64,000 nt of DNA, taken from the IMG/VR virus record IMGVR_UViG_3300045988_091566. The stretch is one strand, 5' to 3'. The DNA comes from a virus. The notes beneath the pieces were generated by a model. It made no database searches. It saw nothing but the letters and a program-made list of their open reading frames with translations, and was not told the origin of the DNA. A program made the position numbers and the translations under genes. Positions 19,313 through 21,240 of this stretch are shown here, piece by piece. Position 1 is the first letter of the stretch; each line of letters opens with the position of its first letter.

Positions 19313-19750
19313 ATGTGTTGGATTTGTATTATTAATAAATTAAAAGCTCAAATAGCTAAAGAAGATATTAATGTATATAAAATAGTTAAGAAAGCTACTA
19401 AGGAATATTGTATATCTCCATTTATGGATTATACTTATTATTCAAAAGATATACAACCTTCTTTAACTTTAGGAGTAACGATTGAACCTCGTTCAATTTT
19501 TGCAAAAATTATAGAAGGTTATTATAGTTACTCTTCTGTAAATTTTGTATGTGATTCAATAATACCGGACATCTTTAGAGGTTGCGTAAAAACTATACAT
19601 TGTGGAAATCGTGATAGAATATTTAGAGTAGACAATTCTTTATATTTAGCTACCTTTATAATTCCCTCAGGTTCTGTATATTTTACAAACGAAAAAGATG
19701 AAATTGTTTCTAATAAAATTCGCTACACAGGTAAATATATAAAATTATGA
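19313..19750 (+). CDS. MC-family paralog 1 (145 aa); lineage-specific family of unknown function
   Basis: Begins MCW. Shares VYK..., IIP.GS.YF and EIVSNKI.YTG blocks with the ORFs at 19997, 20785 and 39332. Confidence 0.55.
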   Translation: MCWICIINKLKAQIAKEDINVYKIVKKATKEYCISPFMDYTYYSKDIQPSLTLGVTIEPRSIFAKIIEGYYSYSSVNFVCDSIIPDIFRGCVKTIHCGNRDRIFRVDNSLYLATFIIPSGSVYFTNEKDEIVSNKIRYTGKYIKL

Positions 19751-19959
19751 AAAAAGCATTATTAATTATAGGATTGTTATTAATTGTTACTTTAGTTAAT
19801 AGTTATAATTATCCTACTAGAGACGGTACTAAAGCACAGGCTTACTATCGTAAAACTTTAGAAATTATGTATGATTCTAAGAAAAGACCTCATAAGATAG
19901 TTATCTATAGTGGATCAGGTATGTCTTCTGTTGATTTGGATGCTAATACATATAAATAA
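19747..19959 (+). CDS. small secreted protein (70 aa) with a signal peptide
   Basis: N-terminus MKKALLIIGLLLIVTLVNS. Confidence 0.45.
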   Translation: MKKALLIIGLLLIVTLVNSYNYPTRDGTKAQAYYRKTLEIMYDSKKRPHKIVIYSGSGMSSVDLDANTYK

Positions 19960-19996
19960 CTATTAGAGAATTGTAGAATTATTTAATAATTAAATT

Positions 19997-20392
19997 ATGT
20001 GTTGGTCAAATTATATGGCAACTCCAATTGTATTGAAGAAGCCTTTAAGAGTTTATAAAGTAGGTAAATTAACAACTTTAGGTATCTTTATAAGTCAATA
20101 TCAAAATTTTAGGTACTATAAATCTCAGATTATGCCTACAGTAAAGATAAGACCTAAATTTGAAAGGTATAGATCTGTTATGGGATGTGTGGGAGAACTT
20201 TGGAATTATGATCGTTTTTATATACATGAAGGTTATCATTCATACTTAACTGAAGAAATGGCTAAGGGTAGAATGTGTTATGCTGAAATAGGAATATTTG
20301 AAATTCCAGTAGGTGCTACTGTATATATCAACTATGCATATAGAGAAGTAGTTAGTACTGATATTAAATATTTAGGATTATTAGAAGAATAA
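19997..20392 (+). CDS. MC-family paralog 2 (131 aa)
   Basis: Begins MCW. Conserved VYKVG, EGYHSY, IPVGATVY and VVSTDIKYLG blocks. Confidence 0.55.
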   Translation: MCWSNYMATPIVLKKPLRVYKVGKLTTLGIFISQYQNFRYYKSQIMPTVKIRPKFERYRSVMGCVGELWNYDRFYIHEGYHSYLTEEMAKGRMCYAEIGIFEIPVGATVYINYAYREVVSTDIKYLGLLEE

Positions 20393-20784
20393 CCAATTTG
20401 GGGGATAGTCGCGAATATTATAGGGCAGATTGATAAGAAACGGAAACAATGAATGGATAATTCTAGTAACCCTCAGGAATTGTGAACGAAAGTTTCAAAG
20501 TACGTTAGATTCGTAAATCCCCCACTGCGAAGTTTCAATCGTTGTACCTAGTTAGGAAATTATGTACCTAATTAGAGAAAAGAGAAGTTACCTACATAAT
20601 CCGGAGTATGTAGGACAGGTGATAAGGCGAAACATGATTATTATCTAAGTAGCTGAAGTACGTTCAATTCGTATTACTTCTCCAAAATCTCTGAGAGGCT
20701 TTATGCCATATGTTTTGTAGGAGTGTATTAACTATCTAGTTAGTATACTCCTTTTTATATTTAAGTATTTTAAATATTAAGCTT
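20393..20784 (+). other. about 390-nt non-coding, highly structured region between MC paralogs 2 and 3 (candidate structured ncRNA)
   Basis: No ORFs. Long-range complement TGGGGGAT...AATCCCCCAC. Repeats AAGTACGTTAGATTCGTA / AAGTACGTTCAATTCGTA and TGTACCTAGTTAGG / TGTACCTAATTAGA. 8-bp hairpin CCTACATA/TATGTAGG. Terminal hairpin GGAGTGTA...TATACTCC followed by TTTTT. Confidence 0.35.
20720..20757 (+). terminator. putative intrinsic terminator
   Basis: GGAGTGTA-16nt-TATACTCC hairpin followed by TTTTT. Confidence 0.4.
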
Positions 20785-21240
20785 ATGTGTTTTATTAGGA
20801 CAAAAGAAAGTAAATTATTAATAGCAAAAAGAGATATTACAGTTTATAAAGTAGGAGTATATGCAGATGTACAAATGTTTACACCATACTTTATGACTGA
20901 TTATTGTTATAGAAGAAAAGCACTTGCTAATCAAACTGTAACATTTAATAAAAACTCTATTAACATAGGTTTACATAGTGTATTATCTTTAGAAGGTTGT
21001 TATGCATCATTAATTGGCTGTATACGTTTTTTCTCTAATGGAAGTCGCATTCCTTTTATTGTTGTAAATGTTTTATGTAATCATGTTTATATAGGAAAAT
21101 TTATTATTCCAAGAGATAGTTTATATATGGTTAATTCTCATAATGAAGTAGTATCTAATAGGCTTATTTATACAGGTGAATTTAAACACATTAATAAGAA
21201 TGAAGATTTTAATATTAAAGAATTATGGAAAGAAAAATAG
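20785..21240 (+). CDS. MC-family paralog 3 (151 aa)
   Basis: Begins MCF. Conserved VYKVG, EGCYAS, IIPRDSLYM and VVSNRLIYTG blocks. Confidence 0.55.
   Translation: MCFIRTKESKLLIAKRDITVYKVGVYADVQMFTPYFMTDYCYRRKALANQTVTFNKNSINIGLHSVLSLEGCYASLIGCIRFFSNGSRIPFIVVNVLCNHVYIGKFIIPRDSLYMVNSHNEVVSNRLIYTGEFKHINKNEDFNIKELWKEK

Follow-up and report, generated by a model that had tools for sequence, protein, structure and literature searches.

ADP-ribosyltransferase (ART)-type paralogs are known from phage T4, in which Alt, ModA and ModB, partly encoded in tandem, take part in early host takeover. Proteins that depend on an N-terminal cysteine fall, to our knowledge, into two classes, the Cys-type N-terminal-nucleophile (Cys-Ntn) hydrolases and the SRAP proteins. 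In the Cys-Ntn hydrolases, such as bile salt hydrolase, penicillin V acylase and the class II glutamine amidotransferases, the nucleophilic cysteine becomes the first residue after removal of the initiator methionine. The methionine is also removed in the SRAP protein YedK, where a ring-opened sugar aldehyde is captured as a thiazolidine by Cys2, Glu105, His160 and Asn75 (PMC9436759). Here we describe four genes, termed A to D, in a 64,000-nucleotide stretch of gut-phage DNA (IMG/VR record IMGVR_UViG_3300045988_091566; the whole stretch is referred to as the window), three of which lie between positions 19,313 and 21,240. Their products all begin with Met-Cys and belong to an uncharacterised, very large phage family with a strictly N-terminal cysteine and what is, with moderate confidence, an ART-like predicted fold.

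A four-member family of small Met-Cys proteins had been proposed in an initial annotation made from the letters of the window, and this proposal is borne out. The open reading frames (ORFs) claimed at 19313, 19997, 20785 and 39332 exist on the + strand at those coordinates (Table 1) and each is opened by ATG TGT, with the Met-Cys N-terminus being unambiguous in all four because the ATG is the first start codon past an in-frame upstream stop. Identity to paralog A is 24-37% in a four-way alignment, in which the invariant residues are M1, C2, the V and K of VYK, a Y and an S, followed by the G and S of the GxHS block and C, F, I, P and S. The conserved blocks that had been listed are present with variants, namely VYK(V/I), which is VWK in D, G(Y/L)(H/Y)S, which is found across the paralogs, and IP.(G/D)(S/A).(Y/V)(Y/F/M), which contains GATVY in B and DSLYM in C; the block VVS(N/T)..I.Y(T/L)G, however, is found in A, B and C only and is missing from D.

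The four genes are true paralogs, and their similarity is one of homology rather than composition because pairwise BLASTP, a leave-out profile and an independent assignment to phrog_13450 all join them. The BLASTP E-values are 2e-12 for A-C, 1e-4 for A-B, 5e-3 for C-D and 4.3 for B-D. The leave-out profile was built, so as to avoid circularity, from 106 database relatives that are each <40% identical to any of A-D, and against the 448 six-frame ORFs of the window it matched the four paralogs (E-values of 1.9e-35, 4.7e-31, 1.2e-24 and 1.5e-19) and no others, the next ORF having an E-value of 0.18. The PHROGs family phrog_13450 ("unknown function") matches D (4.7e-8), C (2.8e-6) and A (5.1e-4), and paralog B, with no match to it at E <=1, is joined to the family via the family profile. 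It could be argued that the resemblance is compositional or due to chance with no real family behind it, as the genome is 29% GC, the proteins are rich in Ile, Lys, Asn and Tyr and some of the pairwise E-values are weak (that of B-D above all), but with A-D alone matched by the leave-out profile at 1e-19 to 1e-35, the same columns conserved in thousands of database relatives and confident AlphaFold2 models this is next to impossible, and a similarity of composition alone is ruled out by the leave-out profile.

Beyond the window the family is widespread. A word-indexed search of 5.8 billion proteins gave 1,669 clusters at 90% identity, and an exhaustive HMMER search of 1.84 billion 50%-identity representatives gave 3,371 matches at E <=1e-3, with 231 at E <=1e-10. 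Every source name among the family matches is "hypothetical protein", and searches of Pfam, NCBIfam and PADLOC with the four paralogs, 125 family members and their consensus found no meaningful family; DUF7666 was matched by 2 of the 125 members at E 0.029, a match that was not reproduced by the consensus sequence. Nor was anything about the family found by searching the literature on BC2332, DUF7666, A1S_2505 and crAss-like phages with ART paralogs. Close relatives are found on gut-phage contigs of 56-225 kb from IMG/VR or metagenomes, the best GenBank matches are the uncultured human-faecal phages MT835539 and MT835492, and a more distant homolog is present in IAS virus, a probable crAss-like phage. 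When 185,579 genomes of bacteria and archaea were scanned once for the pattern [IL][AG][KTR]FIIPKG, which is a narrow one, 0 relatives were found, and this is weak evidence for the family being restricted to phages. The family is very large, unannotated and apparently phage-restricted, and consists of single-domain proteins of about 110-180 amino acids. The genes are multicopy in related phages, with 1-7 copies per related locus that are mostly arranged head-to-tail (seven in L006, six in L002, L024 and L027 and five in several others). Gene content and identity are mosaic in this region among related phages, and judged by ortholog identities the neighbouring genes vary about as much as the Met-Cys genes, so that the rapid diversification suggested in the initial annotation is no more than possible.

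In a curated alignment of the 125 members, which are diverse and have a mean column identity of 18% (residues are given in the numbering of B), M1, C2, K21 and P104 are conserved in 100%, H81 and S120 in 98%, A13 in 95%, Y40 and the Tyr at column 109 in 94%, G79 and S82 in 93%, N112 in 90%, D16 and E117 in 82% and K105 in 80%, with I103 and V119 lying within 90-98%. The consensus reads MC[WF]...IA..DI.VYK...S....Y....EGYHSY...(variable, 10-60 aa)...FIIPKGS.YY.N..GEIVS..I. The invariant Cys at position 2, first remarked upon in the four paralogs, thus extends across the family, as the Met-Cys start is found in 125 of 125 sequences of the curated alignment, in 118 of the 120 closest database matches and in 136 of 150 representatives at 50% identity. 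Among the 14 representatives without it, about eight are plainly fragments that arose by truncation or frameshift, two more have MCW preceded by an extra Met or a probable mis-called extension and two more have the N-terminal segment missing. The cysteine codon always follows ATG and both synonymous codons are used, with 113 cases of TGT and 7 of TGC, a dominance of TGT that is expected at 29% GC. Position 1 of the profile is residue 1 in almost all representatives and no N-terminal extension was seen. Where the domain is fused the fusions are C-terminal or internal only, with P0215 (L011 129-905) having an A1S_2505 family phage non-structural protein domain (NF049995, E 6e-37) C-terminal of its Met-Cys domain and P0256 an insertion within the Met-Cys protein. 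A disulfide or metal-cluster role for Cys2 was considered and rejected, as no second Cys is conserved.

Other polar positions are less strictly kept. Within the orthogroup of A (79 orthologs) the motif is GYHSY in 46 and GYYSY in 28 and Glu117 has become Val in 47, and Glu117 is missing from all orthologs of D, yet the orthogroups without Glu117 and/or His81 still keep Cys2, Lys21, Pro104 and Ser120.

Table 1. Positions of the Met-Cys paralogs and of the other features of the window that are mentioned in the text (residue numbers follow paralog B).
Feature	Position	Strand	Description
ORF with in-frame TAG	457-1818	+	15 in-frame TAG, no TAA or TGA
ORF with in-frame TAG	2633-3778	+	9 in-frame TAG, no TAA or TGA
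ORF with in-frame TAG	3733-4899	+	9 in-frame TAG, no TAA or TGA
tRNA cluster	15639-18721		at least 8 tRNA genes
tRNA	16228-16312	+	85 nt, anticodon UUA (ARAGORN)
Megaphage-like segment	17084-17244		just downstream of tRNA-Gln gene
Repeated motif, first copy	18308-18323	+	between tRNA genes
Odd tRNA	18368-18440		anticodon unassignable
Repeated motif, second copy	18490-18505	+	between tRNA genes
Terminator	18750-18784		ends the tRNA cluster
Paralog A	19313-19750	+	145 aa, starts MCW; GYYSY (His81 to Tyr); Glu kept at 117
Small ORF	19747-19959		signal peptide
Paralog B	19997-20392	+	131 aa, starts MCW; shortest variable region; Asp16 to Pro; canonical K21, H81, S82, N112, E117, S120
Non-coding island	20393-20784		
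tRNA-like RNA unit 1	20400-20524	+	7-bp acceptor-like stem GGGGGAT/ATCCCCC; T-arm-like hairpin TACG-TTAGATT-CGTA; internal hairpin with GAAA tetraloop
tRNA-like RNA unit 2	20582-20683	+	7-bp acceptor-like stem GAGAAGT/ACTTCTC; 8-bp hairpin; T-arm loop TTCAATT
Intrinsic terminator	20719-20752	+	15-bp stem then T-run, with the end placed at 20752 or at 20760; conserved in all aligned relatives
Paralog C	20785-21240	+	151 aa, starts MCF; full conserved polar set; stop codon TAG
Group I intron match	28915-29171	+	full-length Rfam match, 85.9 bits, E 1.8e-20
ORF overlapping intron match	29098-29727	-	209 aa; opposite strand, overlaps 3' part of the intron match
ATPase module	30010-34893	+	AAA ATPase (phrog_2376), 517-aa protein, 677-aa protein (phrog_1735)
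Two genes upstream of D	38533-39332	+	phrog_3163 and phrog_21574 proteins
Paralog D	39332-39760	+	142 aa, starts MCL; separate locus; without Glu117 (EIVS to FYAS); Asn112 to Asp
ORF with in-frame TAG	61563-62906	+	2 in-frame TAG; long only if TAG is sense

AlphaFold2 models of B and D, built with the family alignment, are confident, with a predicted local distance difference test (pLDDT) score of 94.3 and a predicted template modelling (pTM) score of 0.85 for B and of 89.3 and 0.86 for D. The two models, which had been put forward as a check for a shared fold, have a common core strand order. In both a short ordered strand directly follows Cys2 (residues 3-5 in B and 3-4 in D), and over residues 1-10 the pLDDT averages 91 for B and 85 for D. 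The predicted fold is a compact beta structure which, with moderate confidence, is most like that of the ART superfamily, and the models have the split beta-sheet of the ART fold (SCOP d.166.1). In a fold comparison ART-superfamily proteins made up about 55 of the 60 top matches by our count, with BC2332 (PDB 2aua) scoring 6.5 over 83 aligned residues, followed by Tpt1 (5.0), Tne2 and PARP15 (both 4.8), diphtheria toxin (4.7), Arr (4.6) and AcrF11 (4.5); TreTu, TreX, C3, pertussis toxin and RES toxins were also matched, and the scores are modest. BC2332-like proteins are placed in SCOP d.166.1.6, within the ADP-ribosylation grouping d.166.1 (PMC3000352; cf. PMC3024214). In BFVD eight uncharacterised viral homologs were found and, more weakly matched, domains from giant-virus proteins that carry the annotation DUF4116 or ankyrin-repeat.

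The conserved blocks can also be laid beside the motifs of the superfamily. ART proteins have hY[RH]G in beta-1, G[FY]xSTS and a catalytic Glu strand, and VYK[VI]G, G[YF]HS[YF] and GE[IV]VS bear a resemblance to these in turn. By this analogy of motifs the putative triad would be K21, S82 and E117, with an invariant Lys where Arg or His is expected. The family differs from the minimal ART proteins BC2332, Arr, AcrF11, Tne2, Tse6, TreTu and TreX in that it has no detectable sequence or profile similarity to them and appears to lack the canonical H-Y-E or R-S-E triad, its apparent beta-1 position being the invariant Lys, and none of those proteins needs an N-terminal Cys. T4 Alt, ModA and ModB are alike in that several ART-type paralogs, partly in tandem, occur in one phage, but those enzymes are larger (ModA and ModB about 200 amino acids, Alt about 680), have the classical R-S-E and no N-terminal Cys, whilst the present family attains 7 copies and its members have diverged much further. 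Descent from the ART superfamily is putative, and no profile similarity to a known ART family was found.

The most attractive reading of the conserved N-terminus is that reactivity resides in a free N-terminal Cys. Cysteine is small enough for methionine aminopeptidase to take off Met1, therefore the mature protein should begin with Cys. This reading is favoured because the Met-Cys start is strictly kept and because the conserved set is chemically like that of SRAP proteins. In E. coli YedK and human HMCES an invariant Cys2, which becomes the N-terminal residue and whose alpha-amine and thiol react with the sugar aldehyde, is surrounded by conserved His, Glu and Asn. The conserved residues of the family, Cys2, His81, Asn112 and Glu117 together with Lys21 and Ser120, are chemically akin to those of the SRAP proteins, although H81, N112 and E117 follow a different order along the chain from N75, E105 and H160 of YedK; neither the SRAP fold nor membership of the SRAP family in Pfam (PF02586) was found.

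We therefore tentatively favour, at somewhat less than an even chance, the view that these proteins are a small enzyme or covalent trap, in which a free N-terminal Cys would be the reactive centre on an ART-like, probably ribose- or nucleotide-binding scaffold. Methionine aminopeptidase would remove Met1 so that Cys becomes residue 1, and the thiol and alpha-amine of the exposed Cys would then form the reactive centre. The ligand of the ART-like scaffold would be of the ribose or nucleotide type (NAD+, ADP-ribose or a derivative), or else a macromolecule of the host. Several diversified copies would be expressed from standard-code, early or middle operons, with different copies probably hitting different host or defence targets, and those copies in the lineages of A and D that are without Glu117 or His81 may be specialised or non-catalytic. 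The removal of Met, the catalytic role of Cys2 and the nature of the ligand are what we infer, as is a role in host takeover or anti-defence.

A number of results weigh against this view. Single representatives have Ser or Gly at the position of Cys2. Foldseek against PDB gave nothing above noise, and hidden Markov model (HMM) searches of PDB and Pfam, as well as of NCBIfam and PADLOC, found no match to an ART family. Searches of PDB sequences with two profiles and the consensus returned noise only, the top match being LnaB at E 0.085. In hhalign the family profile against a profile of the Arr family, the alignment for which was built after the Arr-2 sequence had been confirmed against PDB 9iba, gave a probability of 0.06%. 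Furthermore, the surroundings of the genes offer no clue to function, the neighbours being small unknown genes and the window being devoid of macro, NUDIX and NAD-metabolism genes.

It is possible, if unlikely, that the proteins work as ordinary NAD+-dependent ADP-ribosyltransferases or NADases whose triad is K-S-E, a variant of R-S-E; Cys2 would then be structural only and each paralog would modify a different host protein or nucleic acid, as T4 Alt, ModA and ModB or AcrF11 do. The putative triad could be read in this way, but known R-S-E toxins lose their activity when Lys takes the Arg/His position, as in the pertussis toxin mutant 9K/129G. Glu117 is missing from D and its orthologs and from most orthologs of A whilst Cys2 is never lost there, the exact Met-Cys N-terminus would be left unexplained, and the similarity of profile to ART families is nil.

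Rather more doubtful is the suggestion that the proteins do no catalysis and are pseudo-ART decoys or sponges, which as binders or inhibitors would act stoichiometrically on host defence proteins or small-molecule signals, with the paralogs tracking different targets. Against this, C2, K21, H81, S82, N112 and S120 are invariant or nearly so over 3,000+ clusters with a mean identity of 18%, and conservation of polar residues of this kind is typical of an active site and not of a surface that co-evolves with varied targets.

A special form of the free-cysteine reading, which we consider improbable, is that Cys1 of the mature protein captures a ring-opened ribose aldehyde as a thiazolidine, so that the arrays of genes would provide covalent, single-use sponges or shields against NAD+- or glycosylase-based defences. 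The targets would be free ADP-ribose, NAD-derived immune signals or abasic sites, and the chemistry would match that of SRAP/HMCES on an unrelated fold.

Given the two tRNA-like RNAs that are predicted between B and C (Table 1), the function could also be tied to these or to the neighbouring tRNAs, for example as a Tpt1-like RNA 2'-phosphotransferase, in ADP-ribosylation of RNA ends or in ModB-type RNAylation of host proteins. This is very improbable, as proteins and RNAs occur together in a single phage clade only, in which gene order is conserved, no tRNA or tRNA-like gene lies near distant members of the family, paralog D is at another locus and the R-H-R-R tetrad of Tpt1 is not present.

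That the proteins are true members of the Ntn-hydrolase superfamily is hardly credible, for although Cys2 is invariant and follows a Met that methionine aminopeptidase can remove, the idea is effectively refuted at the level of fold, the predicted fold being clearly not an alpha-beta-beta-alpha sandwich. The analogy with N-terminal-nucleophile enzymes drawn in the initial annotation is therefore upheld in part, as a nucleophile would come first once Met is removed, but the four-layer Ntn fold is not seen. Cys-Ntn hydrolases have a different and much larger fold without structural or sequence match to the family, and the likeness includes Cys2/Arg18/Asp21 of bile salt hydrolase beside Cys2/Asp16/Lys21 here, with the Asp and Arg (Lys) on the next hairpin.

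The paralog genes are set among tRNA genes, small unknown ORFs and replication genes, in a region that reads in the standard code. Part of the genome seems to be TAG-recoded because there are long ORFs that appear only when TAG is read as sense (Table 1), and those at the start of the window are probable late genes. The standard code of the Met-Cys genes fits early or middle expression, and as paralog C ends in TAG this suggests that it is expressed before any suppression sets in. An ART-like fold would likewise fit roles in host takeover or anti-defence. From the class of fold, the multicopy diversified arrays and the location in the genome we infer a role of this kind, which had been proposed at the outset for a set of genes in an early region; the multicopy arrangement, the standard-code context and the ART-like predicted fold fit that proposal.

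If the free-cysteine reading is true, >3,000 sequence clusters that are common in human-gut phages and are now "hypothetical" would be turned into a defined class of enzyme, and an ART-like fold of the kind associated with conflict would be joined with the chemistry of an N-terminal cysteine, a combination that is not described in the literature that was searched. It could also reveal a new mechanism of phage host takeover or anti-defence. The proteins should be easy to test because they are small, confidently modelled and have a handful of invariant residues.

The initial annotation placed three of the paralogs around a structured non-coding island. This is roughly right, in that B and C flank the island and A lies about 640 nt upstream, in what is predicted to be the same transcription unit. 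The terminators at 18750-18784 and 20719-20752 bound a stretch which, because of this, is read as one unit made up of A, the small signal-peptide ORF, B and the two RNAs, with C opening the next. As judged from sequence and predicted structure the island is real and comprises two tRNA-like RNAs and a terminator, which, if co-transcribed with A and B, provide a second and independent lead. B ends 8 nt before RNA unit 1 and C starts after the island.

Unit 2 is a paralog of unit 1. Both units have an 8-bp hairpin in the position of the D-arm, a central arm with a conserved GATAAG...GAAAC motif (GGTGATAAGGCGAAA in the central arm of unit 2) and a T-arm-like hairpin, with the loop TT(C/A)(A/G)ATT, that is stacked on the acceptor stem. 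In related phages the island is 76-87% identical, and three loci have unit 2 and the terminator only. The core motif of unit 2 was found in 26 IMG/VR contigs, its fold has a z-score of -2.56 and compensatory double changes occur in 5 of its 24 consensus pairs, located in its acceptor stem and hairpin. Unit 1 has a single compensatory pair and several others with wobble-compatible changes. The central arm of unit 2 carries insertions of 36-85 nt in some phages. Unit 1 in the window is without 8 nt (ATACCTAT) that form the 5' strand of the first hairpin and are present in 14 of 14 related variants, thus the copy in the window may be degenerate or an assembly variant.

Neither RNA unit was recognised by ARAGORN or Rfam, and at permissive thresholds Rfam gave nothing credible in the island. 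A tmRNA, a YrlA/Y RNA and an intron-containing tRNA were considered for the island and rejected, having no ARAGORN or Rfam support and arms that are not canonical, and a retron RNA was rejected as there is no reverse transcriptase and again no ARAGORN or Rfam support. Phage T4 has rnaC and rnaD (species 1 and 2), small stable tRNA-like RNAs beside its tRNA cluster. The RNAs of the island are by description like these, being small, tRNA-like and near a phage tRNA cluster, but differ from them in that an 8-bp hairpin replaces the D-arm and the central arm is expandable.

The tRNA cluster itself has some features of its own. The presence of a tRNA at the site of the UUA-anticodon gene was confirmed by Rfam, and such a tRNA would be predicted to decode UAA and possibly, through wobble, UAG. 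Between tRNA genes the motif TTGCTTG(C/T)GAAAGTAG is found twice and may be a promoter or processing signal. The megaphage-like segment comprises 140-160 nt with 95% identity to Prevotella Lak megaphages.

The surroundings of four distant members of the family that were sampled contain, besides small unknown genes, only a helicase, a sigma factor and a single PNK3P gene, and no partner gene was recurrent. On the contig that encodes P0215 a PNK3P polynucleotide kinase/phosphatase gene lies 7 kb downstream of the P0215 gene.

Further along the window, between C and D, are the group I intron match with its overlapping ORF and the ATPase module (Table 1). The 677-aa protein of this module is conserved at about 37% identity, mostly under the annotation hypothetical, in some 500 unrelated phages, whose hosts include Salmonella, Klebsiella, Bacillus and Caulobacter. 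The first of the two genes directly upstream of paralog D encodes a GNVxSxSGDV repeat protein (phrog_3163) that by eye is bactofilin-like. The product of the second (phrog_21574) has a signal peptide and weakly matches an L-alanyl-D-glutamate peptidase at the C-terminus of the latter, and the start of D overlaps the stop of this gene by 1 nt.

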